Source: an uncultured bacterium
GTDB lineage: Bacteria > Macinerneyibacteriota > Macinerneyibacteria > Macinerneyibacteriales > CAYRFE01
Assembly (NCBI GenBank): GCA_964423645.1
Contig: CAYRFE010000023.1
Span: 10,473-58,016 of the forward strand
Length of the DNA: 47,544 nucleotides
Direction: 5' to 3'
Both the position numbers and the translations under genes were made by a program. This document shows positions 1-47,544 of this stretch, in pieces. Numbering within the stretch: position 1 is the stretch's first letter; the number at the start of each line of letters is the position of its first letter. A model generated the notes under the pieces. It had not been told where the DNA came from. It ran no database searches and saw only the letters and a program-made list of their open reading frames with translations.

Positions 1-140
1 AATATTACTATGTGCTCTCCCCAAACCCCTCTCGTTGAAATCGAGAGGGGCTTCATTTGTTTTATAGTGGGGACTTCGTCCCCACACCCCTGTTTTGGAA
101 ATAAAGAAAAATCGGAAATTTTGAATTTTGCAAAACTCTC
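1..140 (-). repeat. G-rich modular intergenic repeat, copy 1 (reverse orientation, truncated by window edge; hairpin subtype C)
   Basis: ccccaaacccctctcgttgaaatcgagagggg ... gtccccacacccc is the reverse complement of the conserved ends ggggtgtggggacg / ggggtttgggg seen in the other copies. It contains the hairpin cccctctcg-atttcaa-cgagagggg. TTTGCAAA motif at 127-136. Confidence 0.75.
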
Positions 141-250
141 ACATCGTTAATAAATGGTAGTTTAAACCTCTCATCAGGGTATTGGGGGGCATTTTTCTTG
201 ACATGCACAGCATATCAACCTACACTTAACCCTATAGAAAGGAGATTACA

Positions 251-673
251 ATGAAAAAATTCGATCTGTCTTCCATGTTTTTCGGAATACTGGTGTTTTC
301 GATCATTCGTATTGTTAGCGGCAGTATATCAATGCTTGTATATTCCGTAAATAGCGATATCCCGCGTATGCAATATGCTTTTCTTGCGCAAAATTTAGTT
401 AGTTTTGTGTTGTACTCTATTACGCTTGTGTTTTTAGGAATGTATATCGTAAAAGGCTTATATCGCACGGGTGTCCTTGCGTGTACTATTCTTATTGCAG
501 TTAAGGTAACGCTTATGGCAGGTTATTCATTGGTCGCAAATATCACACGGTATTCTTCTTCAAATTTGATCTTTACGGTTTCCGGATTATTCGAGCAAAT
601 GATATTTCTGATATTTCTTGTTATATATATTATATATGTAATGAAATCAGATGATGAACAGTCCGGGTTTTAA
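251..673 (+). CDS. hypothetical small integral membrane protein (4 predicted TM helices)
   Basis: ORF of 140 aa, hydrophobic throughout, AGGAG-like RBS (aaaggagattacaATG). Confidence 0.45.
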   Translation: MKKFDLSSMFFGILVFSIIRIVSGSISMLVYSVNSDIPRMQYAFLAQNLVSFVLYSITLVFLGMYIVKGLYRTGVLACTILIAVKVTLMAGYSLVANITRYSSSNLIFTVSGLFEQMIFLIFLVIYIIYVMKSDDEQSGF

Positions 674-706
674 AAACGGCATGAATTTTACAGAAAGGAG
701 AATGCC

Positions 707-1444
707 ATGAAAAAATGTATGTATTTTATTATCGCATGTTTGGGCGTGATCGGAATCGTGAATGCTGATTTTACCATTTACCGTAATGGGGAGCATGAAG
801 AAACAAAAGAGTATGCACCTTTTGTGGATGCTGTAAGGATTCGTGCGACACCGGATCTTAACGGTAAGTCTATCGCTACTTTAGAGTTTCCAAATAGTGT
901 AGAATTTATCATTGATTCAACTCACGAAACAGTTGTCGATTATAACGGCGAAAAGATGAAGTCTCGATGGATGAAGGTTTCACAATACAATACGGATGAA
1001 AAAGGATGGATCTGGAAAGGTTTCATGGTACGCTTACGCATGTATCAAACTGATAATGCACGTTTTTATATACCCGACACGAGCAAAAGCTCGGTAATGA
1101 GTTTGGAGATCATACAAGGAAAATCTCAACTTGAAACAAAACCGCGCGATACCGTACGAGTGACAAAAGAAAATGATGATACCATCTACACATATTCGAT
1201 ATCGTGGATCAACGGGAATTCAATTCCTGAATATTTTAATATGAGTGTCCGCAGTGACAAGCTTTTTACCGATCAGGAGATGATAACCCGATTTAATGCA
1301 CTTGTAAAAAAGGGTGATACGTCTGCCGCATGGGAATATTTGGAAAATGCTTCAAAAAGTGCGTCACTTACCTTTCGAGGGTTACAGTGGTACGGCTATC
1401 TCCGAGTATTAAAACATGCAATGACCGAACAAATTAACAATTAA
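707..1444 (+). CDS. secreted protein with SH3b-like domain (signal peptide)
   Basis: N-terminal signal peptide MKKCMYFIIACLGVIGIVNA. RBS aaaggagaatgccATG. Segment VRIRATPDLNGKSIATLEFPNSVEF...RWMKV resembles a bacterial SH3 domain. Confidence 0.5.
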   Translation: MKKCMYFIIACLGVIGIVNADFTIYRNGEHEETKEYAPFVDAVRIRATPDLNGKSIATLEFPNSVEFIIDSTHETVVDYNGEKMKSRWMKVSQYNTDEKGWIWKGFMVRLRMYQTDNARFYIPDTSKSSVMSLEIIQGKSQLETKPRDTVRVTKENDDTIYTYSISWINGNSIPEYFNMSVRSDKLFTDQEMITRFNALVKKGDTSAAWEYLENASKSASLTFRGLQWYGYLRVLKHAMTEQINN

Positions 1445-1505
1445 CCTTTTATCATATGAAATCGTTAAGACCGTCGCAAAATGCAATGTCGCAGCGTATA
1501 GTGTT

Positions 1506-1702
1506 AGACCTTTGCGAAATTCGAATTTATTCACGGTTCCATTTTTCCTAAAAAGGGGTGTGGGGACGAAGTCGGGTGCATGGTATGCACCCGCGACATT
1601 GAGAATTTTGTAGCAGACAATCTTTTTGCCTGCCTCTCGATTTTCACGGGAGGGGTTTGGGGTGGGCACAAATTCAAAAAATGGAAGCTTTGCAAAGGTC
1701 TT
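1506..1702 (+). repeat. G-rich modular intergenic repeat, copy 2 (complete, with TIRs; subtype B)
   Basis: 5' agacctttgcgaaattcgaattt and 3' aattcaaaaaatggaagctttgcaaaggtctt form inverted repeats. Core is ggggtgtggggacg...gggaggggtttggggtgggcacaaat with internal hairpins. Confidence 0.8.
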
Positions 1703-1798
1703 AATTTGGGATCATCGTTCAAGACACATAGGGAAGATTGAAAAATTTGCTGTATCAAACAATCTTGGTTGTCTCCATGATTTAATTTGATCATGAAA

Positions 1799-1827
1799 CA
1801 AAAAAGGACGGTTGACACCGTCCTTTA
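1799..1827 (-). terminator. rho-independent terminator (bidirectional hairpin) downstream of the DUF4282-like gene
   Basis: aaaggacggt-tgac-accgtccttt is a perfect 10-bp stem, followed on the minus strand by TTTTTTGTTT. Confidence 0.6.
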
Positions 1828-1846
1828 AAATAATAAAAAGTATTAA

Positions 1847-2131: not shown

Positions 2132-2382
2132 TTTTTCCTCCTTTATATAGTATGCCTCTTTCACAACCAACCGTAGTATAGCACGTTCGCGAAAAACGTC
2201 AAGATATTTGAAAGATATTTTGTGTAATTTTATTGTGACTTCATGATATGAGAAAGCGTTGTCTTTCAATAGGTACGCCACTTTTTGTAAGTCCTTGAGA
2301 AATAAAATAGTAAAAAAACAAAATAATCGGAATAACTTGAAGATAAGTGTAACTTTTTCAAAAAATATGCATCTATATTAAT

Positions 2383-4000: not shown

Positions 4001-5635
4001 TTGAAAAAAACGCTGGGTCCGGAAGAGTTGATTGAACAGATTGTTAAAGAGGCCTCAAAGAAAAACGGTATCAGTTATGAAGAATTAAATGACCTGATAC
4101 CTGATGAGGTCGTGTCGCCGGAGATTTTTGAGCGAATCGTGAGTGAATTACAAAAACAAGGTTTGTTGTTGGAAGACAAAGAAGAGTCGAATAAAGAACT
4201 CAATTCTGAAATCCTTGAAAATGCATTAGCCGAAGATACTCTTGATGATCCTGTTCGCTTATATTTGCGCGAGATGGGAAAAGTGCCGTTGCTTGATAAA
4301 GACGGCGAGATTGAGGTCGCCAGACGTATTGAAGAAGGCTACAATATAATCAAAAAGTATATTTTCAAACTCGATTTTATCGTCGACGAGTTGAAGCAAC
4401 GTATTCCCCGATGTGAAGAACGACATTGTGAGGACGTTATCAATATGGACTACGGTGATATTAATAATTTAGATAAACAGGAAGAATATTATCGCAACTT
4501 TAAAATGAATTATGAACGTATTGTTGCTATTCACATGGAAATATCGGAAACGTATGAGAAGATTGAGAAAGCAAAGACTGAAAAAGAACGTGATAAGAAC
4601 ACCCTTTTGATTGAGGCAAAACGTGAACGATTGCGCATCGCGGTTGAAGAGACCAATCTTAATTATACACAAGTTGAAAAACTTGCCGAGCGATTCAAAC
4701 GTATCATGAAGGACATTGATGAAAAAGAGAAGGAATTGAGTCGTATTCGCTTGAAAGAAGACGTAGAAGCATTTGAAATTAGAGGACACGAAGAGCGGAT
4801 TCGTGCAAACGAGAAAAGACTTGGTCTGAAACGCGATGATCTCAATTTTATTCTTTTGGAGGTCAATAAAGGCTTGCGTAAGGTTGAGAAAGCAAAAAAT
4901 CATCTTATCAGCGCAAATGTCCGTCTGGTTATCAGTATCGCAAAAAAATATACCAATCGCGGCTTACAATTTCTTGACCTGATTCAGGAAGGGAATATCG
5001 GGCTTATGCGTGCGGTAGAAAAATTCGATTATAAAAAAGGCTATAAGTTCTCCACGTATGCAACATGGTGGATTCGTCAAGCCATTACTCGTGCAATTGC
5101 CGACCAGGCACGTACCATTCGTATTCCTGTGCATATGATTGAAAATATTAATAAAATAAATAAAGCGATGCGTGTGTTTAAACAGGAAAACGGTCGTGAG
5201 CCTACTACCGAAGAACTTTCACCGATTGTCGATATGCCTGAATCAAAGATCAATCAGATCAAAAAAATTGCGATCGATCCGGTTTCATTGGAAACGCCTG
5301 TCGGAGATCAAGGCGACAGTCAGCTTGGTGATTTTCTTGAAGATACTCGTATTGAATCCCCCGAACGTACGGTGCAGATAAAACTTCTTCGTGAAAAACT
5401 TAACGAACTCTTGCTCACACTTGAAGATCGTGAGCAGAAGATCCTGCGGTTACGTTATTCATGGATAGAGGGGCGGTCGTACACTCTTGAAGAGGTTGGT
5501 TCAAAATTCGGTATCACTCGTGAGCGCGTGCGTCAAATTGAGCAGAAAGCACTGAAAAAACTCAAACATCCGAGCCGCAGACGAATTCTTGAGGATTACG
5601 TGCGTATTATTGAAGAATTATCATCGAAGTATTAA
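4001..5635 (+). CDS. rpoD: RNA polymerase primary sigma factor (sigma-70)
   Basis: Region 2 motifs [36 protein letters not shown] and region 4 [31 protein letters not shown] in frame at 4001 is preceded by GGAGG 7 nt upstream and immediately follows the dnaG stop. The upstream ATG at 3959 lies inside dnaG and lacks an RBS. Confidence 0.9.
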
Positions 5636-5657
5636 TTTCTATTTTTCCGTTTTTCTC

Positions 5658-5685
5658 AAACCCTCCCGAAAATGGGAGGGTTTTA
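5658..5685 (+). terminator. rho-independent terminator after rpoD
   Basis: aaaccctccc-gaaaat-gggaggg followed by TTTT. Confidence 0.75.
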
Positions 5686-5794
5686 CGTTATTATGGTGTG
5701 AAGAATTTTCTCCACGGTCTTTTTAAGGTGTAAAAAAATAGCAAGTTATTGAATTTCACCAACATCTCGTTTTTTTTCTATACTAAATGGATAT

Positions 5795-5996
5795 CTTTGC
5801 AAAAATCAAAATTTCCAAATCATCGTTATTTTCTAAAAAAGGGTGTGGGGACCGTAGCAGGGCTTGTCCCTGCCCGATACTATGCACCGCTACATTGGGA
5901 ATTTTTGTAGCAGAAGATCTTTCTGCCCGCTTTCCGATTTCCATGGGAGGGGTTTGGGGTGAGCACACATTCAAAAATGGTAGTTTTGCAAAGGTC
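5795..5996 (+). repeat. G-rich modular intergenic repeat, copy 3 (complete; subtype B)
   Basis: tctttgcaaaaatcaaaattt ... gggtgtggggacc ... gggaggggtttggggtgagcacacattcaaaaatggtagttttgcaaaggtc. Central part is homologous to copy 2 (tttgtagcaga.gatcttt.tgcc). Confidence 0.8.
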
Positions 5997-6037
5997 AAAT
6001 AATCAAAATGAGATTCAATAAACTGATTATTTTATTG

Positions 6038-6403
6038 TTATTGGTTGAGAAAGTCATCTTCTTCACGAAAAACAGGAATGTGTAATTGCATACTCAAGTT
6101 TTTCATAGTGTTAACGACGTCTAAATAGTCTGTCTTTTTTACATGATATTGACCGACGACACGGCCAATGGGATTCTCAAAAATACGCAATCGTTCTCCT
6201 CGTTTTGTGAAATAGACACAAATGTAATAGTGTGTGGTTTTTTCTTTTCGTGGATTTTTTTCATAAAAGAAGAATGCCCATGATCCGAGTAGTATAAATC
6301 CTGAAATAAAAAACAAACCGAGAATATCACCGGATGTAAAAATATATCGTCCCCAGAGAAGAAAAAGAATAATTGCACCAACCGTGAGGATGTACTTCAT
6401 CAT
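6038..6403 (-). CDS. hypothetical membrane protein (2 TM helices near N-terminus)
   Basis: 121-aa ORF, hydrophobic N-terminal half, no recognisable family. Confidence 0.4.
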   Translation of the reverse strand: MMKYILTVGAIILFLLWGRYIFTSGDILGLFFISGFILLGSWAFFFYEKNPRKEKTTHYYICVYFTKRGERLRIFENPIGRVVGQYHVKKTDYLDVVNTMKNLSMQLHIPVFREEDDFLNQ

Positions 6404-6668
6404 ACACCAGTATAACCGTTACAATGATGATCTTCAAGTGTTGATATAAATACGTATATGAGAAAAGTTGGAAACAATTACGTGATGCGGAAAAATGTGT
6501 TTTAAAAAATACTTGACGAAATGTGTATAGTGCGATATTCTGAAATTCGAACGTTACTGATAAAAGAGGTAAACATAATTTGACGGAGTACTGTTGAATG
6601 CAGAGAAACACTGAATACTACATTTGCTCATGGCAAAAAGACGTGAAAAAGCGCGGAGTCGGCATATA

Positions 6669-7157
6669 ATGACAGACTATCGCATTATTCGGGCAGAACG
6701 TGCGCATCTCCGATTTTGCGCTGAAAGCAGATATGAAGTTTTTCGTGACGACAAAGATTACACAATGCGTAAAGATGATTTTATTCGTATTACCGAGAAT
6801 TATTTTGTAGATCATTTGTCAGACGAAAACGTGATCACGCTTGTAGCGGTCACGGATGCTTGTACAATCGGATGCGGTACTCTTATTGTTCAAGAGCGCT
6901 TACCGCACATTGAGATTTATGAAAATAAACGCGGATATATACTGAATGTATTTGTCAAACCTGAATTTCGCGGTTGTGGAATAGCAAAGATGCTTATGCG
7001 CGCGCTTCATGAAGAAGCAGTACGGAAAAATGTAGCAGTGATTGATCTTCATGCTGCCGATAAAGCATATTCATTATATTTAGCACTAGGATATACGCAT
7101 AATGAAAATTGTCTGGAATTTGATATTCGCTCTGCCATTGATAACAGAAATGTTTGA
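6669..7157 (+). CDS. GNAT family N-acetyltransferase
   Basis: Acetyl-CoA binding motif VFVKPEFRGCGIAKMLMRALHEEA (Q/RxxGxG/A). Start taken at MTDYRII. The six-frame ORF begins at 6624. Confidence 0.65.
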   Translation: MTDYRIIRAERAHLRFCAESRYEVFRDDKDYTMRKDDFIRITENYFVDHLSDENVITLVAVTDACTIGCGTLIVQERLPHIEIYENKRGYILNVFVKPEFRGCGIAKMLMRALHEEAVRKNVAVIDLHAADKAYSLYLALGYTHNENCLEFDIRSAIDNRNV

Positions 7158-7189
7158 ATGTGACGGATATATTAAAACGAGGTAATAAC

Positions 7190-7675
7190 ATGCGCTATGA
7201 CATTATTGATGCCACAAAAAATCATGCATTGTTTCTTGCACAATGCAGGTATGCGATGTTTGCCGCGATGTACCCGAAGGAAGATTTATCGGCAAAAAAG
7301 GATTCTTTCATTGCCGAAGCCGAACGTTATTTCAGACAGCATGAAGCAACGGAACAGTTGCAAAGTGTAATTGCAACGTGTGACGGCAAACCGGTTGGTT
7401 GCGGTACCGCACTGCTGCAGCTGCGTCCGCCAAGTATCAAACATCCTGTAAATATATTTTCATATATACTCAATGTGTTTGTGATGCCTGAACATAGAGG
7501 TAAACAGCTCGCCCGAAAGATGATGGATGCATTGCATGAACGCTCTGAACAACATGGCGCACATACGGTAAGTTTGCATGCTTCTGAGATGGGGTTTCCG
7601 GTATATACCGGTTTGGGATATGAAAAGGTTGAAAACTATTTGGAAATGGCATTGAAACTTGATGAAAATCAATAA
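7190..7675 (+). CDS. GNAT family N-acetyltransferase (paralog of upstream gene)
   Basis: VFVMPEHRGKQLARKMMDALHERS motif, same architecture as 6669-7157. A 4-nt overlap of the longer ORF with the upstream stop suggests an operon. Confidence 0.65.
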   Translation: MRYDIIDATKNHALFLAQCRYAMFAAMYPKEDLSAKKDSFIAEAERYFRQHEATEQLQSVIATCDGKPVGCGTALLQLRPPSIKHPVNIFSYILNVFVMPEHRGKQLARKMMDALHERSEQHGAHTVSLHASEMGFPVYTGLGYEKVENYLEMALKLDENQ

Positions 7676-7697
7676 ACATAGATAATAAGGAACTCAT

Positions 7698-7919
7698 ATG
7701 ACAAATAATACCGTAGATCTGGGATTTTCATATCAAGCAGTGAAAAGCGGTAAGGTGTTTATCTATCGTGATGGAAAAACCGTGACCACGCTTTCAGAAA
7801 AACGTGCGATTGAGTTTTTGGCTCAAATTACCGGAGCTGATGATAATGAAGCTCAAATGATCATGGCTAAAGTAACAGGAAACTATAAACGTGGCAACGA
7901 AAAGCACAAGAAAACGTAA
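7698..7919 (+). CDS. hypothetical small protein (73 aa)
   Basis: RBS aaggaactcatATG, no recognisable domain. Confidence 0.4.
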   Translation: MTNNTVDLGFSYQAVKSGKVFIYRDGKTVTTLSEKRAIEFLAQITGADDNEAQMIMAKVTGNYKRGNEKHKKT

Positions 7920-7961
7920 TAATCCATAAGTTAATTGCGTTTCACTGAAAAGGAGGAGATC

Positions 7962-9251
7962 ATGGAAGTCGGAACCATTCTGATGTATACCGGTATCGGT
8001 ATTGCGGCTATTTTTATGCGTCATATTATCGGCGGTTTTTTTGGGTTGTATCGTATCGTACCGGTGAATGAAGCGCATATTCGTATCTTGCAGAATAAGA
8101 AACAAGTATTTTCCGCACGTGAAGGCAAAACGGCATATTGGTATATACCGTTTATTACAAGGATTCATAAATTACCGTTGTGTAACCTCGCTATTCCCGT
8201 TAATGACATAAAGCTGAATGATAAAAATATGGCAAAATTTGTGTGTGATATCATGTGTTTTATCAATATCAATGATATTAATCTGGCCGTTGAGCGTCTT
8301 GTTCTGACCGATACGACGCATAGCATGGGTTTTGATTTTGTGCGATTGTCTGAGGATTTACGTGCAATTATGGAGAGTATCGGTCGTACTGTGACGACCA
8401 AACAAAGTATTCTCGACATTTATATGGATAGACAGATGCTTGATATGGCAATTACAAAGGAAGTAATTGCGGTATTTCCAAAATGGGGTATAGAACTTGT
8501 TGACCTTGAATTGAAAGACATCAAGGATGCACACGAAAGTACAATTATTTCTGATATTGAACGTAAGGTGGCGGCAGAGATCCGTAGAGACGCTGAAATC
8601 ATTGTTGCAAATACAACCAAGGAAGCTGAACTGGTAAAAGCAGAGGCAGAAGAAATATATCGCAAACGTCAAATTTCAAAAGATATGGAAATCGGTATTT
8701 CCGAACAAGACAAAAATCGACAAATCGCCGAGAAAGAAGCTCAAGCGAATATCGTCCGCGTTGAAGCAAAACGCAAATTAACGGTTGGTGAAGCCGAGAT
8801 TGAAAAACAAAAAATCGAACAACTTGCTCAGGCTGAAAAAATAAAACTGACAACCGAAGCCGAAGGAGAGTCGAACAAAATTACCGCCGTCGGTAAAGCT
8901 GAAGCGAATATTATTCAGATCAAAAAAGAAGCTGAAGCAGCAGGTACGCTCAAACTGGCTGAAGCAATGAAAGAGTTCAATGATACGGCTATCAATGTAA
9001 AAGTGCTTGATATTCAAAAAGAAGTATTGCTCGGAAAGTATGAGGCACTTGCCAAAGCATTACAAGGCGCAGATTTGAAATGGATAATGAGCGGTGATAA
9101 TGCACAAAAATTCTTCGGTATAGACCTGTCTGCAGAAGGCGGGGCGAATCTCAATCAATTTATGCAGGAAGCGGGGATTGACGGTTCTATGGTCGAAAAG
9201 TTTCGCACATTGTTGGGAAAAAATCAAAAAATTGAACATGAGAAAAAGTAA
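7962..9251 (+). CDS. SPFH/band-7 (flotillin-like) membrane scaffold protein
   Basis: N-terminal TM helix, SPFH core, then a long Ala/Glu/Lys coiled-coil tail (EAELVKAEAEEIYRKRQ...AEKEAQANIVRVEAKRK...). RBS aaaggaggagatcATG at 7962. Confidence 0.7.
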   Translation: MEVGTILMYTGIGIAAIFMRHIIGGFFGLYRIVPVNEAHIRILQNKKQVFSAREGKTAYWYIPFITRIHKLPLCNLAIPVNDIKLNDKNMAKFVCDIMCFININDINLAVERLVLTDTTHSMGFDFVRLSEDLRAIMESIGRTVTTKQSILDIYMDRQMLDMAITKEVIAVFPKWGIELVDLELKDIKDAHESTIISDIERKVAAEIRRDAEIIVANTTKEAELVKAEAEEIYRKRQISKDMEIGISEQDKNRQIAEKEAQANIVRVEAKRKLTVGEAEIEKQKIEQLAQAEKIKLTTEAEGESNKITAVGKAEANIIQIKKEAEAAGTLKLAEAMKEFNDTAINVKVLDIQKEVLLGKYEALAKALQGADLKWIMSGDNAQKFFGIDLSAEGGANLNQFMQEAGIDGSMVEKFRTLLGKNQKIEHEKK

Positions 9252-9255
9252 TATG

Positions 9256-9280
9256 AAGGGGGCAAATGCCCCCTTATTTC
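9256..9280 (+). terminator. rho-independent terminator after the flotillin-like gene
   Basis: gaagggggc-aaat-gcccccttatttc. Confidence 0.7.
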
Positions 9281-9289
9281 AGGAGATGC

Positions 9290-9850
9290 ATGAACCACGA
9301 AGTACTGTTTGACAGTGAACGGTTGTTTTTTCGCAGATTGGTCGCGGATGATGCTGAACTGTTTTTTCGAGATCATTCTTTGCCGGACTTGATCCGTTTT
9401 CAAAGCTGGAAACCGAGAACAATTGACGAGATCCGTGATTTTATCAGTAAGCAACACACTATCGAGATTGATACCTACGGTACATGGTTTCAAATGGCGA
9501 TTTGCCTAAAAAATAACGGTTATTTTATCGGTGATTGCGGGTTTCATTTCTCTGATCCCGAAGGATATCAGGTTGATATCGGGTATACTATTGCACCGGA
9601 ATTTCAAGGCAACGGATATGCTGTTGAAAGTGTACACGCAATGGTTCAGTATCTTTTCACGGAGTTGCACAAACATCGTCTATGCGGGTATGTCGACCCC
9701 GGAAATCTTGCCTCAATCCGTGTACTTGAAAAAGCAGGGTTCAGAAAAGAGGCTCATTTTCGAAAAAGCATCATGATAGACGGTCAATGGTGTGATGATG
9801 TTGTTTTTGCCATACTGAAAGAAGAGTTTGTACATAAAAAGGGCGGTTAA
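9290..9850 (+). CDS. GNAT family N-acetyltransferase (RimJ/RimL-like)
   Basis: FQGNGYAVESVHAMVQYLF motif, RBS aggagatgcATG. The six-frame ORF starts inside the terminator at 9266. Confidence 0.65.
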   Translation: MNHEVLFDSERLFFRRLVADDAELFFRDHSLPDLIRFQSWKPRTIDEIRDFISKQHTIEIDTYGTWFQMAICLKNNGYFIGDCGFHFSDPEGYQVDIGYTIAPEFQGNGYAVESVHAMVQYLFTELHKHRLCGYVDPGNLASIRVLEKAGFRKEAHFRKSIMIDGQWCDDVVFAILKEEFVHKKGG

Positions 9851-9895
9851 ACACCACCCGTCGTTGTTATCACTCTATTACCACTATTACAATGT

Positions 9896-10378
9896 TTATT
9901 TCTTGATTTTTTCTGCCCATTCTTTGCAAATTTCCGTCACTCCTTCGAGCGCATCAGATTTCGGTTCTTTAAATTCACAATTACCGATAAACGTATTACC
10001 TTCAAGCATCTTTTCCATATGCTCAATTGTTTTTCCGGGATTGCCTCCGTGAGTGCAGTAGAATGCGATTCGTTTTCCGACAAAAGGTTTTGACGAGAGA
10101 AAAGTTCGTATCGCGGGAGCCATTGTCCATGCCCATACGGGAGTACCGATAATGATGGTTTCATAGTGAGAAAAATCGATCGTGATCGGTTCAAGTTCGG
10201 GAGTTTCTTTCATTTTCGCTTGTTTTCCCAACCAAAAATATTTTTTTAAACCGGTCAAGCGCTTTTCGGCCTTAGGTTTAAGCTCAACAACATCCGCGGG
10301 AAAAATCGGTGACAACAATTCTGAGATCAAACGACAATTTCCCTCATACGAGTAATAGATAATCAGTGTGGTATTCAT
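9896..10378 (-). CDS. flavodoxin-like fold protein (NAD(P)H-dependent FMN reductase/flavodoxin family)
   Basis: MNTTLIIYYSYEGN...GTPVWAWTMAPAIRTFL has the flavodoxin-like pattern. RBS aaggagaaaattATG. Confidence 0.6.
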   Translation of the reverse strand: MNTTLIIYYSYEGNCRLISELLSPIFPADVVELKPKAEKRLTGLKKYFWLGKQAKMKETPELEPITIDFSHYETIIIGTPVWAWTMAPAIRTFLSSKPFVGKRIAFYCTHGGNPGKTIEHMEKMLEGNTFIGNCEFKEPKSDALEGVTEICKEWAEKIKK

Positions 10379-10553
10379 AATTTTCTCCTTGTTGTCCATA
10401 CTATAGAGTTTAAATGATTGTTTTGTCAAGTCAGAATTTTATGATGTGCGAAAAATTCACATTAATTCGTATGGCGAGCGTTCAGAGCAATTCAATTCAT
10501 AAAAATCGTTTTTCTCAAATCCCTTAATCTCAAATATGCGTGTTATAAAGATC

Positions 10554-10587
10554 GTAAAAAAAACGGCAGGTCTAATCACCTGCCGTT
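10554..10587 (-). terminator. bidirectional rho-independent terminator between two minus-strand genes
   Basis: aaaaaaa-cggcaggt-ctaatc-acctgccg-ttttg with an A-run and a T-run on either side. Confidence 0.7.
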
Positions 10588-10606
10588 TTGAACAATGATT
10601 ATCGGA

Positions 10607-11434: not shown

Positions 11435-11564
11435 TTCAGACCTCCTTTTTTAAAATAAGACATATATAAATATAGCAAGTAATAAAAAAATATCAAGGCA
11501 AACCCAAGAAATATCTGTAATAATAGTTCTTAAGTGATATACTTAGGCAACGAGGTGAGTATAT

Positions 11565-14704: not shown

Positions 14705-14741
14705 TTTAAAATAGTTGACGTACTATCGTAGTAATGATTTA

Positions 14742-33080: not shown

Positions 33081-33265
33081 ATTCCCCGAAGCTTGCTTCG
33101 GCTTTACTATTATAGTTTTTTTATTATAAGGGGTGTGGTGACGGTGTAGAGACACGGCATGCCGTGTCTGTAACCGAAAGCCCCTCCCAAAAAGAAAAGG
33201 GAGGGGTTTGGAGTGGGCAAACAAATAAAGTTTTTTTCGGAGATACCCTGTAGCTAGTTCATTAC
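33064..33265 (+). repeat. modular intergenic repeat, copy 5: 5' module + G-rich core (subtype A) + 3' module
   Basis: tttaatctcaatgggttaaattccccgaagcttgcttcggctttactattatagtttttttattataa + ggggtgtggtgacg-[gacacggcatgccgtgtc]-[cccctccc aaaaagaaaa gggagggg]-tttggagtgggcaaacaaat + ggagataccctgtagctagttcat. Confidence 0.85.
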
Positions 33266-38260: not shown

Positions 38261-39152
38261 AAAATCTATTCGGTTAGACGTATTTATCAGTAAAGAATTG
38301 GAATGGTCGAGCAGGAGTGCCATCCAAAAATGGATAGCAGACGGGTGTGTTGCGGTAAATGGGACCATCATTATAAAAACAGGATATGCATTAAATAATG
38401 GTGACACCATTGATATTCAAGTCCCTGAAAAAGAAAAAATACTGCTTCTTCCCGAAGAAATACCTCTTACCATTGTGTATGAAGACGAGTATTTAGTGGT
38501 GATCAATAAACCGTCAGGATTGGTTGTACATCCAGGTGCCGGTGTACAGAGCGGTACGTTGGTGAATGCGCTTTTGCATCATTTTTCATCGTTATCTGCT
38601 GTTGATACCACACGACCGGGCATAGTTCATCGCCTTGATAAAGATACGTCGGGATTGATGATCGTGGCGAAAGATGATATCGCACATCGCAAATTGAGTG
38701 ATATGTTGAAAGAGCGTACCGTGAAACGTGTGTATATGGGGATACTTGTGGGAAAGTTTGAAAAAACAAGCGGGAATATTATAGCTCCGATAGGCAGAAA
38801 CGATGATGACCGTAAAAAAATGGCGGTGAATGTTCGCGGACGATATGCAGAGACAAAATATACGGTCTTGGAAGTATTTCGCGGATATTCCTTAGTTGAG
38901 TTCTCTTTAAAAACAGGGCGAACACATCAAATTCGTGTTCATTCGAAATTCATGGGGCATCCTATATTGGGAGATGTTATTTATGGCGGAAAAGCGACGG
39001 AAAAAAAACTTGCGTGTGTCACACGACAAATGCTTCATGCGCAAAAACTTAGTTTTCATCATCCGGTAAGCGGAGAGTTTATGCAATTTGAGACAGTATT
39101 ACCTGATGATTTTCAACATACTCTTGATGTGCTGTATGAATTGTTTAGTTAA
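38238..39152 (+). CDS. RluA-family 23S rRNA pseudouridine synthase (RluD-like, with S4 domain)
   Basis: S4-like N-terminus (LDVFISKELEWSSRSAIQKWIADGCVAVNG) and catalytic HRLDKDTSGLMIVAKDD. RBS aaggaggagtattccATG. Confidence 0.85.
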   Translation: MQLTAVIEKSIRLDVFISKELEWSSRSAIQKWIADGCVAVNGTIIIKTGYALNNGDTIDIQVPEKEKILLLPEEIPLTIVYEDEYLVVINKPSGLVVHPGAGVQSGTLVNALLHHFSSLSAVDTTRPGIVHRLDKDTSGLMIVAKDDIAHRKLSDMLKERTVKRVYMGILVGKFEKTSGNIIAPIGRNDDDRKKMAVNVRGRYAETKYTVLEVFRGYSLVEFSLKTGRTHQIRVHSKFMGHPILGDVIYGGKATEKKLACVTRQMLHAQKLSFHHPVSGEFMQFETVLPDDFQHTLDVLYELFS

Positions 39153-39488
39153 AATTGGGGCACAAGCTCTGGGTAAATAATCGATTATTATGTCTATTTC
39201 ATTAGCCCCCTCTCATTTGGGAGGGTGACAGGAGCACTTTGTATTCTATCAACGGCATTATTTCCACTCCTGCGGTGCGATAAAAACTTGAATTGACAGA
39301 GCACCTGTTTTCTTATGATTAAAAGCAATGCGATACGTGCACGGTTAATATTATGTCACGTAGAAATATTGTTCATTCTTGTGTCAGTTTCGTGATGTAT
39401 TCCGGAAAAAAGAATAAGAAAATAAATCAAGTGTGACCTTTTCGAAATGTAAAAGATGAGACCCTCGTAAAATTCAAATTCTCTCGTT

Positions 39489-39700
39489 TAATCTCAATGG
39501 GTCAAATCCCCCGAAGCTTGCTTCGGATTTACTATTAATTTTGTTATTATAAGGGGTGTGGGGACGAATTCCCCCACATATTAAAAAAATAAGCCCCGCC
39601 CAAAAGAAAAGGGCGGGGTTTGGGGTGGGCAAACAAATATAGTGTTTTTTGGGGCGATACCCCGTAGCTTGCTGCGGGGTAGTTCATTTTTGCAGGTTGA
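39489..39700 (+). repeat. modular intergenic repeat, copy 6: 5' module + G-rich core (subtype with compensated stems) + 3' module
   Basis: tttaatctcaatgggtcaaatcccccgaagcttgcttcggatttactattaattttgttattataa + ggggtgtggggacgaattcccccaca + [ccccgccc aaaagaaaa gggcgggg] tttggggtgggcaaacaaat + ggggcgataccccgtagcttgctgcggggtagttcat. Confidence 0.85.
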
Positions 39701-39776
39701 TAACAGGGGTGTCGGTAGAGCGCAATGTAAAATTATGGTAGTTTTGCATAAATCTCAAGATATACGTTCTTTTAGT

Positions 39777-39840
39777 CTAAATGAGGCAAATCCGCCGAAG
39801 CATACGCTAGGTTGACTATGATAATTGTGACATGGGAAGA
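39777..39840 (+). repeat. solo, degenerate 5' module of the repeat family
   Basis: tttagtctaaatgaggcaaatccgccgaagcatacgctaggttgactatgataattg aligns with the 5' module (tttaatctcaatgggtcaaatcccccgaagc...). Confidence 0.55.
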
Positions 39841-40063
39841 AGTGTGTAGGTTGAGGTCAGGCAAATCAAAAGCGTCACAGTTTGGGTGGTATAGGAAAGA
39901 TCTTTCCGGGATCAACCTGGCAATTATCGATCGATCGCATCGCATTATACCACAAAGTTCATCGTGGGGAGAGGCTATATACCTCTCCGCAGGGATGTAT
40001 TCTTAAAACGGCAGTTTCGCAAAGGTCTATAGAGAGATGCAGCGCATTGTTTTTCCTGGAGGA

Positions 40064-40768
40064 TTATTCCATCTCGAAGGATACTGCTACAGTGGCAGTA
40101 ATTGTGATCATTCCGGGTGAGAAACTATCACTTGAGGGAGAGCCGGAACCCAATTCGACCATTGAATTTTGTGTCATCTGGCGCTCATTTCGCATATAGT
40201 TGTACCAATAGTTGGACTGATTCTCATTAATACTGAATGGTTTTCCCACTTTCATTCCAAGCTCAGTCGCCAGAGCGACAGCCTTTTCTTTTGCTGCTTT
40301 TATTGCCATTTGACGCGCGGTGTCTCGATGTTTACGCAAATCAGTGGTCCGAAATGTAATGTCATGGATATAGTTTACGCCTCCGACAAGAATATCGGTC
40401 GTAAGGGATTCAAATTTCGTAAGATCTTTCAGCGTGACCACAAAACGCTTTGTTACGAAATATCCTGAAAATTCTTTTTTCGGGTATGTTTCATACCGTG
40501 GTTCGATAGTTATGTAATCTGTTTTAATGTATTTTTCCTCGACCCCTGATTTTTGAAAGATGCTTTTTACTTGTCGAGATTTTGTGTCATTTTCTTGCTT
40601 TGCTATGATCAGATCTTTGTTTGATGTCTCAATAGCGACCGTGATAACGACCTCATCGGGTATCACACGGATCTCTGCCTCCCCGGTTACCTGGATCGTT
40701 CGATCAAAGGCATTGAGAGACAACAATAAACCAATTTGTGCTAGTACGATGACAACAAAATATTTCAT
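40064..40768 (-). CDS. SIMPL/DUF541 domain periplasmic protein
   Basis: Signal peptide MKYFVVIVLAQIGLLLSLNA. 234 aa. VTGEAEIRVIPDEVVITVAIE start and size are typical of DUF541/SIMPL. Confidence 0.55.
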   Translation of the reverse strand: MKYFVVIVLAQIGLLLSLNAFDRTIQVTGEAEIRVIPDEVVITVAIETSNKDLIIAKQENDTKSRQVKSIFQKSGVEEKYIKTDYITIEPRYETYPKKEFSGYFVTKRFVVTLKDLTKFESLTTDILVGGVNYIHDITFRTTDLRKHRDTARQMAIKAAKEKAVALATELGMKVGKPFSINENQSNYWYNYMRNERQMTQNSMVELGSGSPSSDSFSPGMITITATVAVSFEME

Positions 40769-40873: not shown

Positions 40874-41102
40874 AGACCTTTGCGAAACTATCATTTTTTG
40901 AATTTGTGCCCACCCCATCCTTCGACGGAGTTTACACTGAGCGAAGCCGAAGTGCTCAGCACAAGCGCCCCTCCCGCGAAAAATCGGGAGGGGCTTTAAT
41001 TTTCGGTTACAGACACGGCATGCCGTGTCTCTACACCGTCCCCACGCCCCTTTTTTGAAAAAAAGAAAATATAAAAATTTTGAATTTTGCAAAGGTCTTA
41101 TC
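40874..41102 (-). repeat. G-rich modular intergenic repeat, copy 7 (complete with TIRs; subtype A, reverse orientation)
   Basis: agacctttgcgaaa ... atttgtgcccaccccatcc ... [cccctcccg cgaaaaatc gggagggg] ... gacacggcatgccgtgtc ... cgtccccacgcccc ... ttttgaattttgcaaaggtctta. Confidence 0.85.
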
Positions 41103-45251: not shown

Positions 45252-45320
45252 ATGATTGAGTATACGGCATCAATATGGGTTGTTCAAGTGAAAAGCACTG
45301 ACAAACGCTGAAGACACCGT

Positions 45321-45758
45321 TTAATTGTTGATAATAGGTTTTTCCCATGAGGCGATCCCGCCCTGAATGCAATAAAACATCGGATGCGTGACGGGTGTGG
45401 TTAATTGTTGATAGTGAATAAATCGTTCATACGATCGAATAGATAACTTATGCAACAGGTGTTGCCATTCATAGGCGATTTGACCGTGCGTTACAGGAAG
45501 TGAGATTTGTTCACATACAATAATTTTCTTCATATCAAATGAATACTTACGAGACTCGGCCTCTTGTGCAATCGCAAACAGATACCTGCCTATTGCACCA
45601 AGCGGATCGGACGTGGCGCGGAAGCGTTCAAGCTGCGGATGATTTTTGTAGCCTTTCGTCTCACCGCGCAGAACTGCTTGTGCAAGCAAACCTTCCCGCC
45701 ACACAGCGGTCAATCCTTGCCGATCAAGATATTTCGGATGCAAACTCCAAAGGCGCAT
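45321..45758 (-). CDS. pyrimidine dimer DNA glycosylase (T4 endonuclease V-like, DenV family)
   Basis: MRLWSLHPKYLDRQGLTAVWREGLLAQAVL matches the N-terminal catalytic region of the pyrimidine-dimer glycosylase family (N-terminal amine nucleophile plus an HP.YLD.-type motif). Confidence 0.65.
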   Translation of the reverse strand: MRLWSLHPKYLDRQGLTAVWREGLLAQAVLRGETKGYKNHPQLERFRATSDPLGAIGRYLFAIAQEAESRKYSFDMKKIIVCEQISLPVTHGQIAYEWQHLLHKLSIRSYERFIHYQQLTTPVTHPMFYCIQGGIASWEKPIINN

Positions 45759-46005
45759 GTTACATTACACTTCTTACCACGCGGAAGCCGATTTCAGCTT
45801 TGGTGATATCAGAATATTTTTTCCACATGTTATAGCGGAATATTTTTTCGTTGTCATAAAACTTCCTTCCCGGGAAACCAATCTTGTCGGATCACGGACA
45901 ATACTTTTTATTGCTGGAATCGGCATGCTCATCTCAATAATACTCGCATAGATTGCTGATTATGTCAAAGAATATATTGTCAGTATTCTTTTTTTCTTTC
46001 AGTAT

Positions 46006-46070
46006 TTAATCTCAACCGGTCAAATTCTTCGAAGCTTTCTTAGGCATTACTGAGGTAGTTTGTGATACGA
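46006..46070 (+). repeat. solo, degenerate 5' module of the repeat family
   Basis: tttaatctcaaccggtcaaattcttcgaagctttcttaggcattactgaggtagtttgtgata aligns with the 5' module consensus. Confidence 0.55.
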
Positions 46071-46240
46071 GAAGCTGTGCGAGGATTGTAGCGACAGGGA
46101 TTGCCTTTGCCTGAAATCACCGAATCGCAAATCGATTATTATTTTTTGAGGTATTCCGCCGTTTGCTGCGGTGATGTTCAGTTGCTACAAACTGTTGCCA
46201 TTGGTGTATGTTCATATTATCTGCTTAAACCACGTCACAA

Positions 46241-47269
46241 TCAATCAAGATTCCATAGGGATCGGTTTGCGAGCACTGTTTCTGAGGCAAGCTCCCGAAA
46301 GTATTGAGCGTCATTTTCTGAAAGATCACCATTGTAAGGCGTATTTGTCACAGATTCTTTAAATAGTGATGCATAGAGCACGCAAGCGTAAAGATACGAG
46401 CCTGTTGCTGTCGGATGCCACCCGTCAGTCATGTACAGGGCATTTCTTCGGGAAGTATCTGTCGTTTCATGCCAAGCCATTCCTATAGGGACTATACCGA
46501 AGTCATACTGTTGTGACACAAACTTCACTCCGTCGAGTATGTGCTGGTACAATTCCTCATAGGTATAATTAAAATATCCTTCAGGCATTGTCCAACACAT
46601 AAAATAGAGTATTTTTGTCTTTTTACTGTTCGCGGTAATTTTATTTTTTACATATGTTAACGCTTCAAGTTCTTTTGCACGGTATTCTTCGCATGCAACC
46701 AAATCATCAGATTGCAGAAAGACATAATCCCATTGTTTCTCGACCAGAATATTGGCAAATGTTTCATTTGTGTAATATGCTCTAAAAGACGGCCCATAGA
46801 CCAGATAGTTCGTGACTTCGATGTTTTTCCCGTTGAGTGACGCAAGTGTTTCAAACGTATGAGGCATATCGTTTGCCCCGGTTAAGCTGTTACCGACAAA
46901 TAGAATGTGTAAGGGAGAATGTGGAGGTGTAAGACTTTTTACTGTTATTGACTGTGTCAGTGTTGATTTCTGTGCATCTTCAATATAAACGATGTATGTG
47001 CCTACGCTACAATTTTCTATATTTTTTGCTATCTCACCGGTTGACCATAAATAAGAATACGGAGGAACACCTCCTGAAACCGAAATAGTTATTGCGCCGT
47101 CCTTCGAATCATCCGTGGTGGTATCGGTCACCATAAAAGATATTTTCAAAGGATCCTGGTTTTCGATCGGAGAGGTTATGTTGTTGTTTTTTGTGCATTG
47201 CACAGAAACAATAAGAGTAATGAATACCGAGATATGAACGAGAAAGTTTTTTGCTATGTGATGCGACAT
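46241..47269 (-). CDS. secreted SGNH/GDSL-like hydrolase family protein (DUF4886-like) with N-terminal Ig-like segment
   Basis: Start MSHHIAKNF with perfect RBS aaaggaggaattattATG and a signal peptide. HILFVGNSLTGANDMPHTF resembles the GDSL/SGNH block I. The six-frame ORF extends to 47305. Confidence 0.5.
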   Translation of the reverse strand: MSHHIAKNFLVHISVFITLIVSVQCTKNNNITSPIENQDPLKISFMVTDTTTDDSKDGAITISVSGGVPPYSYLWSTGEIAKNIENCSVGTYIVYIEDAQKSTLTQSITVKSLTPPHSPLHILFVGNSLTGANDMPHTFETLASLNGKNIEVTNYLVYGPSFRAYYTNETFANILVEKQWDYVFLQSDDLVACEEYRAKELEALTYVKNKITANSKKTKILYFMCWTMPEGYFNYTYEELYQHILDGVKFVSQQYDFGIVPIGMAWHETTDTSRRNALYMTDGWHPTATGSYLYACVLYASLFKESVTNTPYNGDLSENDAQYFRELASETVLANRSLWNLD

Positions 47270-47442
47270 AATAATTCCTCCTTTTTTTCCGGTTTGACTA
47301 TACACGATCTTTTCACTCAGGCGGTAGTATTATGACAAAGAGTGATTATTGCGGACAATCGAATTTCATCAGTAATCACCACGTTCGATCTATGACGAGT
47401 AAGCTGCGAACACAGTAAGATTTCGTAAATTTTTCACTCTAA

Positions 47443-47499
47443 GGACTTTGCAAAACTTTCATTTTTGAATTTGTGCCCCCCCTTCCGCCCCCCCCCCCA
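47443..47499 (-). repeat. truncated 3'-end fragment of the G-rich repeat with an expanded poly-C/G homopolymer
   Basis: aaggactttgcaaaactttcatttttgaatttgtgccc + cccttccgcccccccccccc. Its reverse complement matches ...gggcacaaattcaaaaa..gttttgcaaag. Confidence 0.6.
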
Positions 47500-47544
47500 T
47501 TTTTCAAATGTATGTTTCGTTTGATCTTCATGTTTATTATTAAT

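Follow-up and report, generated by a model that had tools for sequence, protein, structure and literature searches.

Repeat copies in the window and their modules

The window, i.e. the whole 47,544-nt stretch of DNA that we analysed, comes from an uncultured member of the candidate phylum Mcinerneyibacteriota, and between its genes lie small, non-coding, hairpin-rich repeats. A sequence-only reading had described these as an unannotated, modular, hairpin-rich intergenic family with its own sequence, built like the mosaics of the BOX, BIME or Correia type, and this description stands. The eight loci that it reported, with their G-rich boxes GGGGTGTGGGGAC and GGGGTTTGGGGTGGGCA, all exist to within a few bases, and repeat finding and alignment confirmed the two boxes, the three centre variants and the inverted-repeat ends. 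Allowing up to three mismatches, GGGGTTTGGGGTGGGCA had 6 matches in the window (0.00 expected by chance); with up to two mismatches, GGGGTGTGGGGAC had 8 (0.26 expected) and TTTGCAAAGGTCT had 12 (1.5 expected). As a full list the eight loci fell short, as two further family loci (39771-40030 and 46005-46200) had been missed.

The copies consist of successive GC-rich stem-loops set in AT-rich sequence. The common core (GGGGTGTGGGGAC ... CCCCTCCC-loop-GGGAGGGG-TTTGGGGTGGGCA) has two conserved hairpins and measures 76-144 nt, not 85-120 nt as first proposed. Its exchangeable centre is either short ('S'), one GTAG-tagged palindrome ('A') or two GTAG/CTAC-tagged palindromes head to head ('B'). Type I arms end in 13-nt terminal inverted repeats (AGACCTTTGCAAA). 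Type II arms (L2 and R2) lack inverted repeats; instead, one subterminal hairpin (CCCCGnAGCTTGCTnCGG) lies ~22 nt inside the left end and another, in the same orientation, ~8 nt inside the right end, and the leftmost 13 nt (TTTAATCTAAATG) are themselves a conserved part of the element. What had been taken for an added '70-nt 5' module' and '3' module' is this alternative L2/R2 pair, which replaces the inverted-repeat arms. Every centre-by-arm combination was seen, with all three centres occurring with both arm types, which establishes that the modules reassort. The description of the family as bounded by terminal inverted repeats is correct for the older subfamily (about one third of copies) but not for the younger Type II; among the eight reported loci such ends stand at both sides only in c1, c2, c3 and c7, at one side in c4, c6 and c8, and at neither in c5.

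Copy c1 (1-143, minus strand) is Type I, with inverted-repeat arms and an 'S' centre; the locus, reported as 1-140, is real but incomplete because the window start cuts it (the complete copy lies at L116 9733-9892), and its counterpart in L123 consists of three tandem 143-nt units. A solo degenerate left-arm repeat (AGACCGTCGCAAAATGCAATG; 1468-1488, plus strand, with a TTTGCAAAGGTCT-type match at 1468-1480) lies 17 nt upstream of c2 (1506-1701, plus), a Type I copy whose 'B' centre is a head-to-head pair of REP-like hairpins (hairpin-CGAC-ATTGAGAATTTT-GTAG-hairpin) and which sits between convergent genes, past the DUF4282 terminator (1826-1803). Also Type I with a 'B' centre, of GTAG-tagged hairpins, c3 (5791-5997, plus) starts ~105 nt past a terminator-like hairpin of rpoD (5659-5686); the JGI annotation has a spurious 71-aa gene there. 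The hybrid c4 (14738-14934, plus) joins an L2 hairpin arm and an 'A' centre (GTAG-AGACACGGcatgCCGTGTCT) to an R1 inverted-repeat arm.

Type II copy c5 (33062-33262, plus) has an L2 arm, an 'A' centre and an R2 arm with an internal deletion, and its first 19 nt supply the last six codons and stop codon of the ORF at 32019-33080. In c6 (39487-39757, plus) a Type II unit (L2, 'S' centre and R2, 39487-39693) is continued by a short stretch with an R1-like repeat (TAGTTTTGCATAAATCTC) at its end. The first of the two missed loci (39771-40030, plus) joins an L2-like arm to an R1 inverted-repeat end, with an unrelated centre and a GGGGAGAGGCtatataCCTCTCC hairpin that recurs at L116 5752; it matched the Type II profile with E 8.7e-08 and, for that end, the Type I profile with E 0.017. 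In the second (46005-46200, plus) the arms, L2-like and R2-like, are diverged and the centre is a different one (Type II profile E 4e-12 on the left and 0.026 on the right). Type I copy c7 (40874-41098, minus) has an 'A' centre plus two extra hairpins. The fragment c8 (47441-47499, minus; profile E 6.7e-07), reported as 47443-47499, is likewise real, although it comprises only an R1 right arm (GGGCACAAATTCAAAAATGAAAGTTTTGCAAAGTCCT) beside a degenerate G-run.

Both strands are predicted to fold strongly (z -1.3 to -7), the strongest fold being that of c7 (z ~ -7 on both). In the core hairpins 95.8% of cells were paired, four pairs (9 cells) had changed on both sides, as in c6 (CCCCGCCC/GGGCGGGG), and the covariation score was reached by 0 of 500 shuffles, establishing that the hairpins are maintained. 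The R2 loop is flipped in L128 (CAGCAAGCTG vs TAGCTTGCTG), which points to template switching at the DNA level.

Dispersal, placement and relatives

Five contigs attributed to the same organism (117,020 nt) hold ~30 family loci and 23 complete cores, or one repeat per ~3.9 kb, which amounts to 5.7% of the sequence; if the copy through which each extra contig was found is discounted, 14 remain in 59.7 kb. Assemblies break within copies (L117; starts of L119 and L127). Copies on the four further contigs lie beside unrelated genes, which establishes a dispersed family and not a local duplication. All copies on the five contigs are intergenic, in both orientations, and coding capacity is established to be nil. 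Pairwise differences between copies range from 3 to 40%. Type II copies share a mean identity of 83%, reaching 97.5% between copies on different contigs, and Type I copies 72%; by these values copying is recent, and Type II is the younger, more uniform subfamily and Type I the older.

Neither the window, as previously noted, nor the 117 kb holds a RAYT or any other transposase gene; the only related gene in the 117 kb is an orphan 97-aa HTH_Tnp_1, syntenic in relatives. Searches of Rfam (gathering and relaxed thresholds), tRNA, plasmid, phage and viral collections gave no match to the family. No clean filled-versus-empty site was found, the sole polymorphism being tandem copy number (1 vs 3 units), which could stem from slippage or assembly. 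In relatives with 75-95% identical RpoD, ~44 kb held one diverged fragment, which occupies the position of c1 in reverse orientation; by this comparison the family appears to turn over and to be lineage-specific.

GTAG ranked first of all tetranucleotides 5' of hairpins (27 distinct arms per 1000 occurrences; median 6.2, 95th percentile 13.9), a test in which six of the perfect-stem hits are the same module and which is partly post hoc, since it was prompted by GTAG seen in the sequences. The tag is found on at least eight different palindromes in the modules and is absent from the most conserved parts, i.e. the G-rich boxes and their two hairpins. There are also inverted doublets (hairpin-CTAC-linker-GTAG-hairpin). 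The host intergenic regions that could be classified from gene calls were tandem (13) or convergent (6) and in 0 of 19 cases divergent, the distribution also reported for REP sequences (PMC3733652); the host genes' own terminators lie between stop codon and element. The orientation of Type II copies was biased 12:3 towards the strand with positive GC skew, i.e. the lagging-strand template (PMC5027513), in a small sample (10:3 if adjacent copies count once) and confounded with gene direction.

Likeness to known repeat systems

Among the closest known systems are the GTAG-superfamily REP sequences, BIMEs and REPINs, which are mobilised by RAYT Y1 transposases (PMC3733652, PMC3333891, PMC3116915). 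In both, short imperfect palindromes rich in GC have an unpaired GTAG on one side, a tag common to many stems, and both show inverted doublets with a conserved linker, mosaic mixing with other short motifs, high copy number, species specificity and placement in tandem or convergent but never divergent gaps. Unlike REP sequences, the present family has a conserved heart (two G-rich boxes and two untagged hairpins) without REP counterpart, units of 160-270 nt as against 20-40 nt, one subfamily with terminal inverted repeats and no RAYT gene within the 117 kb, and the host's candidate phylum is not among the phyla named in the abstract of the REP survey.

Type II copies also resemble IS200/IS605 ends and the non-autonomous PATEs (model IS608; PMC3201880, PMC5027513): they lack terminal inverted repeats and target duplication, have similar same-orientation subterminal hairpins at both ends, and lean in orientation to the lagging-strand template. 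Their hairpin-to-end distances (~22 nt left, ~8 nt right) are close to those of IS608, which is cleaved 19 nt 5' and 10 nt 3' of its hairpins (PMC3201880). In contrast to IS200/IS605, the 117 kb holds no tnpA/tnpB partner and the left 13 nt of Type II (TTTAATCTAAATG) are conserved within the element.

BOX elements of Streptococcus pneumoniae (PMC3049150) share the few box types, variable middle modules and lack of coding capacity, but their order is fixed as A-B(n)-C, whereas here arms and centres are both exchanged. The Correia/NEMIS elements of Neisseria, which can be co-transcribed (PMC3184786), are likewise inverted-repeat-bounded, intergenic, ~100-200 nt long and non-coding with long stem-loops, but have 26-bp inverted repeats and a TA duplication, both absent here. 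Neither has sequence similarity to the family. Classical bacterial MITEs (PMC10969869) resemble Type I in size, terminal inverted repeats, AT-rich subterminal DNA and intergenic, gene-free character, but the family has no parent insertion sequence or target-site duplication and its most recent copies lack inverted repeats.

How the copies may have spread

We give a probability of roughly 0.55 to the whole statement that these are lineage-specific non-autonomous mosaic repeats of the REP/BIME/REPIN/MITE class, spread by a Y1 enzyme and shuffled by recombination. That they form a non-autonomous mosaic repeat family is, taken alone, highly probable; that a Y1 enzyme is the agent of spread is a tentative proposal, held at somewhat less than even odds. 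Terminal inverted repeats of the Type I kind are no feature of Y1 transposons and count against such an agent.

The copies could instead be classical MITEs, i.e. deletion derivatives of an insertion sequence whose DDE transposase binds the 13-nt AGACCTTTGCAAA ends and acts by cut-and-paste, with the hairpin-armed copies having decayed or recombined. Type I copies have matching ends that pair and close the predicted fold, are 160-230 nt long, AT-rich just inside and non-coding, and solo end repeats occur at 1468-1488 and L129 ~4190-4270. However, the target-site duplication check proposed with the MITE reading gave none of fixed length (best flank matches 0, 3, 0, 3, 5, 5 and 0 nt; mean 2.0 vs null mean 1.26), so that the defining MITE footprint is absent. 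The 117 kb contains no transposase gene with AGACCTTTGCAAA ends, blastn of Type I against plasmid and phage collections rich in insertion sequences gave no match, and Type II, without inverted repeats, is the younger (83% vs 72% mean identity), where decay predicts the reverse. The lack of duplication, the like-oriented subterminal hairpins that Type II has in place of inverted repeats, and the GTAG tag together favour single-strand elements of REP/BIME or IS200/IS605 type, and we regard MITEs as unlikely.

Less likely still is that the core is selected as a multi-copy small RNA or as a 3'-UTR terminator or mRNA-protection module, spread being secondary. This would fit the compensatory changes in the two core hairpins, the C-rich-strand CCCCTCCC/GGGAGGGG hairpin with its T-rich tail in several copies and terminator-like scores at 26-50 (plus) and 14884-14864 (minus), and the co-orientation with the upstream gene of 16 of 26 copies (12 of 15 for Type II). 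In the first core hairpin most single-sided changes are of the G-U kind on the G-rich strand (5 cells), but in the second, by inspection, G-U-type and A-C-type mismatches are balanced (3 vs 3). Against this reading, fold strength is equal on both strands, both orientations occur, the adjacent genes carry terminators of their own upstream of the element, neither arm has a conserved promoter (candidate -35/-10 spacing 14 to 17 nt), Rfam gave no match, whole centres are exchanged, and the family is lacking in close relatives.

It is improbable that copies are kept by selection for protein-binding sites, as proposed for BIMEs, with the G-rich boxes (potential G-quadruplex GGGAGGGGTTTGGGGTGGG) or the TTTGCAAA palindromes binding a nucleoid protein, gyrase or a regulator. 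In its favour, no other part is as conserved across both arm types as the boxes, copies follow one another at fairly regular intervals of about 4 kb, and the lineage conserves the orphan DNA-binding protein HTH_Tnp_1, but no binding protein can be named and the sites are absent in relatives with 92-95% identical RpoD. The 3' box fits a canonical four-tract quadruplex in c2, c4, c6 and many other copies, but the pattern is broken in c1, c3, c5 and c7, and a conserved hairpin occupies half of it.

An assembly chimera or a segmental duplication limited to the window is refuted: the window does start within a tandem array that has different numbers of units in different assemblies, and short contigs terminate in repeats, but the ENA, JGI and Logan assemblies independently give the same sequence, repeats included, at 99.99-100% identity, and mutually diverged copies lie on other contigs.

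Under the preferred reading of a mosaic family spread by a Y1 enzyme, the enzyme that makes the copies would act in trans from a gene elsewhere in the genome. It would most likely be a hairpin-recognising single-strand Y1 (HuH) transposase (RAYT or IS200/IS605-type TnpA) that uses the GTAG-tagged and subterminal hairpins as its substrates at replication forks. Modules would then be shuffled, stems repaired and loops flipped as copies recombine, undergo gene conversion and switch templates with one another. Consequences for the host (termination, protection of mRNA 3' ends and occasional new gene ends) would be by-products and not the cause of the family's existence. The family is new in sequence but belongs to a well-known kind of genomic parasite (REP/BIME/MITE-type) and is not a new kind of system.

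Copy number and dispersal

Repeat finding and pattern searches recovered all eight repeat loci of the sequence-only reading (c1 to c8, in window order), with its coordinates correct within a few bases, although two related loci, at 39771-40030 and 46005-46200, had been overlooked. Its general reading, of a modular, hairpin-rich family of intergenic repeats, was right and the family is real. Pattern searches of the window gave 6 matches to the G-rich 3' box GGGGTTTGGGGTGGGCA (0.00 expected), 8 to the G-rich 5' box GGGGTGTGGGGAC (0.26 expected) and 12 to the end motif TTTGCAAAGGTCT (1.5 expected). Gene prediction occasionally places small proteins on the repeats, and profiles built from such spurious ORFs led to four more contigs from the same samples; a spurious 71-aa ORF used as a protein query matched nothing except itself. 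We infer that the extra contigs belong to the host from the shared samples, the similar G+C content and the near-identical repeats. Since copies were found on four further contigs, the family is dispersed and is not the product of a local duplication.

The window locus and the other contigs attributed to the host comprise 117,020 nt (117 kb), in which nhmmer profiles and motif searches detected ∼30 family loci, i.e. one per ∼3.9 kb; there are 23 complete cores (5' box to 3' box) of 76-144 nt. Without the copy through which each contig was found, 14 copies remain in 59.7 kb. The repeats account for 5.7% of the 117 kb and are entirely intergenic. Several of the short contigs start or stop inside copies, an effect that high-copy repeats have on short-read assemblies. 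Locus c1 is cut off by the start of the window and is complete in an overlapping ENA contig. At this site a JGI assembly (L123, 5715-6134) carries 2.9 tandem units of 143 nt and an ENA assembly (L116, 9733-9892) a single unit; the copies in both reach window positions 1-134 to 1-142, the flanks are otherwise identical, and the window start falls inside the array.

When a 17-mer core pattern was searched against one genome per species, the matches listed were mostly due to chance, and a 19-mer scan of JGI metagenomes returned 19 stretches, none with the element. Among the matches listed, the 17-mer GGGGTTTGGGGTG(A/G)GCA also lay inside unrelated multi-copy intergenic repeats of Bacteroidota MAGs: in six Saprospiraceae MAGs (L011, L031, L035, L060, L082 and L083) it forms one arm of a long palindrome, and in a Paludibacter MAG (L015, 4800-5070) it stands at the end of a tandemly repeated unit. 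These occurrences may reflect chance or a shared preference for a G-rich motif.

Modular anatomy and hairpin maintenance

Alignment of the eight loci gave a common layout of left arm, 5' box, variable GC-rich hairpins, a CCCCTCCC/GGGAGGGG hairpin, 3' box and right arm. Type I copies have arms with a 13-nt terminal inverted repeat (AGACCTTTGCAAA ... TTTGCAAAGGTCT) and AT-rich subterminal DNA. Boundaries of this kind, previously ascribed to complete copies in general, were confirmed at both ends of c1, c2, c3 and c7 and of four copies on other contigs, but are absent from all Type II copies (c5, c6 and seven on other contigs), and are found in about a third of copies overall. Type II copies start with TTTAATCTAAATGGGTCAAATT-CCCCGAAGCTTGCTTCGG and end with GATA-CCCCGTAGCTTGCTGCGGGG-TAGTTCATT; the L2 hairpin CCCCGAAGCTTGCTTCGG lies ∼22 nt from the left end and the R2 hairpin CCCCGTAGCTTGCTGCGGGG ∼8 nt from the right end, and, read in the same direction, the two agree at 16 of 18 positions. 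At the left end at least two T residues always precede TAATC, and conservation continues through the following 13 nt, which belong to the element. Type II copies have a mean pairwise identity of 83%, reaching 97.5% between copies on different contigs, and Type I copies one of 72%; Type II, which lacks inverted repeats, is the younger subfamily.

Each of the three centre variants, i.e. short (S), with one palindrome (A) and with two palindromes (B), was found with both arm types, and hybrids such as c4 (Type II left arm, Type I right arm) also occur, which shows reassortment of the modules. The other contigs have a third kind of right arm, as is a repeated module of ∼190 nt (CTTACTTTTTGTCTTGACACAAAAAGTAACAAAAAAGTCAAGGCTGTAAAAAATCA...AAACTCGCTACGCTCAAACAGTATTTG...TTGAATTGCTTCACGCTGATTTTTTAAGGCC; L126 3575-3745 and 19605-19780, L127 1-155, L128 12770-12960, L129 600-790), which in many cases adjoins the 3' box and forms that third arm, and is absent from the window. 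Small recurrent hairpin modules (GGATTATCGGGTCAAGCCCGATAATGACACC, GTGTCATTCCCGTGAAAACGGGAATC and CCCCTTCACACTGAAGGGGTG-CATCC-AAGGATGAC; L116 5385-5640, L126 4030-4150, L128 13150-13290, L127 175-235) surround the main family in an order that varies from place to place. Shared modules make up a patchwork across the intergenic DNA.

The predicted folds of all copies are much stronger than those of shuffled controls, equally so on both strands (z from -1.3 to -7). Across 12 S-type cores, 95.8% of the cells in the two conserved stems are paired and four stem pairs show changes on both sides (9 cells), with a covariation score that none of 500 shuffles reached. Compensatory changes include GTGGGGAC/GTCCCCAC to GCGGGGAC/GTCCCCGC, and replacement of the CCCCTCCC/GGGAGGGG stem by CCCCGCCC/GGGCGGGG or CCCCTTCC/GGAAGGGG. 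The stems are thus maintained. A strand test that compared G-U with A-C mismatches was balanced for one hairpin and counted 5 G-U for the second, numbers too small for a decision; the mismatch types carry no clear strand signal and give no sign of maintenance at the RNA level. In one copy the R2 loop is inverted, the mark that template switching leaves at DNA hairpins.

Relationship to known repeat classes

For each tetranucleotide we counted how often it stands directly 5' of a hairpin, on either strand of the 117 kb. GTAG ranked first, with 27 distinct hairpin arms per 1000 occurrences (median 6.2, 95th percentile 13.9), in a test that was prompted by prior sight of GTAG in the sequences; 8 of the 10 distinct GTAG arms fall in repeat modules. 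Examples are GTAG-AGACACGGcatgCCGTGTCT, GTAG-GGGCAGGGtttatCCCTGCCC and GTAG-GGGCAGAAAatcTTTCTGCCC; they agree in kind with REP sequences, which are 20-40-bp imperfect palindromes that carry an unpaired GTAG at one end. The two most conserved core hairpins carry no GTAG tag. The B centres are inverted doublets of the form hairpin-CTAC-ATTGAGAATTTTT-GTAG-hairpin, read as hairpin-CTAC-ATTG(A/G)GAATTTTT-GTAG-hairpin in c3 and at L127 8560-8640; the B centre of c2 has CGAC instead and a 12-nt linker, L126 17725-17850 has the hairpin-CTAC half only, and a hairpin doublet lies at L126 3759/3810. REP sequences and BIMEs are characterised by palindromes with a GTAG tag, by their pairing in inverted orientation across linkers and by mosaic clusters (PMC3733652, PMC3333891), and the present family shares with them the tagged palindromes, the inverted doublets with short linkers and the combination with other motifs in mosaic clusters. 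It is likewise extragenic, high in copy number and placed away from divergent gene pairs: by the gene calls, 19 classifiable host intergenic regions comprised 13 tandem, 6 convergent and no divergent ones. No Y1 transposase, the class that includes the RAYT enzymes whose genes are typically flanked by REPs, is encoded in the 117 kb.

The Type II copies also resemble IS200/IS605-type elements, PATEs among them, in having neither inverted repeats nor a duplication at their boundaries and in carrying subterminal hairpins of like orientation at unequal distances from the ends. IS608 is cleaved 19 nt 5' and 10 nt 3' of its two hairpins (PMC3201880). GC skew is positive on the displayed strand at all six loci, and the orientation of Type II copies relative to it is 12:3, with the top strand on the lagging-strand template, a small sample in which orientation is confounded with gene direction; the ratio for Type I is 5:6. 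A bias towards the lagging-strand template has been reported for the IS200/IS605 family (PMC5027513), and on this sample the Type II orientation is suggestive only. IS200/IS605 elements insert 3' of a specific tetra- or pentanucleotide, with which a guide 5' of the left hairpin pairs. Under the IS608 pairing rule (PMC5934647) we found no convincing guide/target pair for the L2 arm.

The sequence-only reading had likened the family to MITEs. The elements are, as expected of MITEs, small (160-270 nt, where MITEs span about 50-500 bp), multi-copy and devoid of coding capacity, any overlapping ORFs being spurious. However, a fixed-length target-site duplication was not found at the boundaries, where the best direct repeats were 0, 3, 0, 3, 5, 5 and 0 nt; their mean was 2.0, against a null distribution with mean 1.26 and 95th percentile 2.0, and neither length nor sequence was constant. 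The absence of a transposase gene noted for the window holds across all 117 kb, where the sole related gene is a 97-aa HTH_Tnp_1 ORF. The evidence places the family closer to REP/BIME sequences and to IS200/IS605-type single-strand elements than to classical MITEs.

A likeness to BOX and Correia (NEMIS) elements in organisation, with a distinct sequence, had also been proposed, and holds for the modular, intergenic build. As judged by eye, the repeat ends and boxes are unlike boxA, boxB and boxC and the Correia 26-bp consensus. The Correia-type TA duplication was not found at the element boundaries, and the hosts of the BOX and Correia families are unrelated to this organism. A search of the window against Rfam 15 gave no match at the gathering threshold and nothing convincing at relaxed thresholds, where only one match fell on a copy (39557-39690, in c6; E 3.8) and the best match anywhere (E 1.1) lay off the elements. 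In the other contigs Rfam identified only an RNase P RNA and a tRNA, both outside elements, and a tRNA search of the window found none. Collections of 72,556 plasmids and 50,697 phages gave no blastn match, and a viral-contig scan gave nothing.

We consider it very improbable that the G-rich core is a 'cargo' that has been fitted both with inverted repeats, for a DDE enzyme, and with subterminal hairpins, for a Y1 single-strand transposase, perhaps with internal REP hairpins as well; such a core would persist either through a benefit to the host, for which it would act as structured RNA or as a G-quadruplex or protein-binding site, or as the module that an undescribed enzyme truly recognises. 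If this were so, the family would represent a non-coding element switching between transposition machineries. Integron attC sites, dif/Xer sites, CRISPR, retrons and group II introns were dropped, as the conserved motifs do not fit them and the context is one of housekeeping genes.

The reading that we favour is that of a non-autonomous element that would be copied in trans by an enzyme, most likely a Y1 (HuH) transposase, with recombination and template switching reshuffling the copies. The data show that the family is dispersed and mosaic and that its hairpins are maintained; the enzyme and the mechanism are inferred.

Genomic context and significance

The window is AT-rich (about 40% G+C), has a steady positive GC skew and encodes housekeeping functions that include dnaG, rpoD, ileS and a sigma-54 two-component pair. 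Identical sequence was independently assembled from ENA, JGI and Logan data (99.99-100% identity). Its RpoD shares 76% identity with a protein labelled 'Candidatus Mcinerneyibacteriota bacterium' and 69% with RpoD of Candidatus Mcinerneyibacterium aminivorans, so the host is an uncultured member of the candidate phylum Mcinerneyibacteriota, a name that a full-text search located in three papers, once in each. No canonical copy was present in relatives whose RpoD is 95%, 92% and 75% identical (∼44 kb in total); one diverged fragment (E 4e-11) occupies the c1 intergenic site there, in the opposite orientation and with the other arm type.

Gene order 3' of rpoD differs in the relatives with 75% and also 95% RpoD identity, which indicates that these genomes are heavily rearranged. 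The ∼5.9 kb that separates rpoD from ilvC-def-fmt in the window (5636-11564) holds c3, acetyltransferases, a Band_7 gene, a flavodoxin gene and an outer-membrane beta-barrel gene; in the 75% relative (L121, 11635-11638) only 2 nt lie between rpoD and ilvC-def-fmt. The beta-barrel gene (window 10607-11434, i.e. L001 16741-17568, compared with L002 10151-10978) is a 275-aa ORF in one ENA assembly and is in two pieces of 50 and 154 aa in another. As the two assemblies show only 2 substitutions relative to the window in 14.8 kb, the split may be a strain-level nonsense mutation.

The HTH_Tnp_1 ORF (16032-16325, minus strand) is an orphan with IS3-type OrfA helix-turn-helix domains (HTH_Tnp_1 and HTH_28) and no transposase partner. 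It adjoins the same EF-hand gene in the 92% relative, and so looks domesticated rather than mobile; in principle its product could be a candidate binder of the inverted-repeat ends. The convergent genes around 39152-40064 are separated by ∼900 nt of gene-free DNA, which holds c6, the related locus 39771-40030 and ∼330 nt of unassigned sequence (39160-39480) that have hairpins of their own and no match elsewhere in the data. On contig L128 the RNase P RNA gene lies at 9702-10060 (plus strand, 318 bits) and the tRNA gene at 8407-8479 (plus strand); a Type II element follows 48 nt 3' of the RNase P RNA gene, and a 69-aa 'protein' called by JGI covers the end of that RNA and the element.

Possible roles in host gene expression were considered. 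The inverted repeat was rejected as an outward-facing Bacteroidetes-type -7 promoter box (TAnnTTTG), since the host uses TTGACA-17-TAnnnT promoters (e.g. 198-226, conserved in the relative L119) and many of the ends face gene 3' ends. A promoter in the L2 arm (TTTACT-N-TATAAG) was unsupported, with a spacing of 14-17 nt and a -10 box lacking the final T. Some C-strand hairpins score as terminator-like, but a general role of the core hairpin as terminator of the upstream gene was rejected because PmbA, rpoD and DUF4282 terminate before the element. The terminators of these three genes are kept between stop codon and element, and gene 251-673 has a promoter (TTGACA-17-TACACT) whose conservation in a relative is independent of the adjacent element, from which it follows that the elements sit in dispensable DNA. 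ORF 32019-33080 takes its final six codons (ILISMG) and its stop codon from the first 19 nt of c5 (33062-33080); insertion of c5 has rewritten the C-terminus of this ORF.

The repeats have consequences for the study of this organism: they break its short-read assemblies, seed spurious gene calls (of 32-173 aa, present in public protein databases) and rewrite gene ends, as in ORF 32019-33080. They could also be usable as strain markers, because copy number differs between samples. The family opens no new mechanistic question and at most could aid in locating a RAYT or IS200-type enzyme in the lineage. The family, new in sequence and of a known kind, gives a first view of the repeats in a little-known and barely studied candidate phylum, and provides a compact natural case of module shuffling between ends of the inverted-repeat type and ends of the hairpin type.
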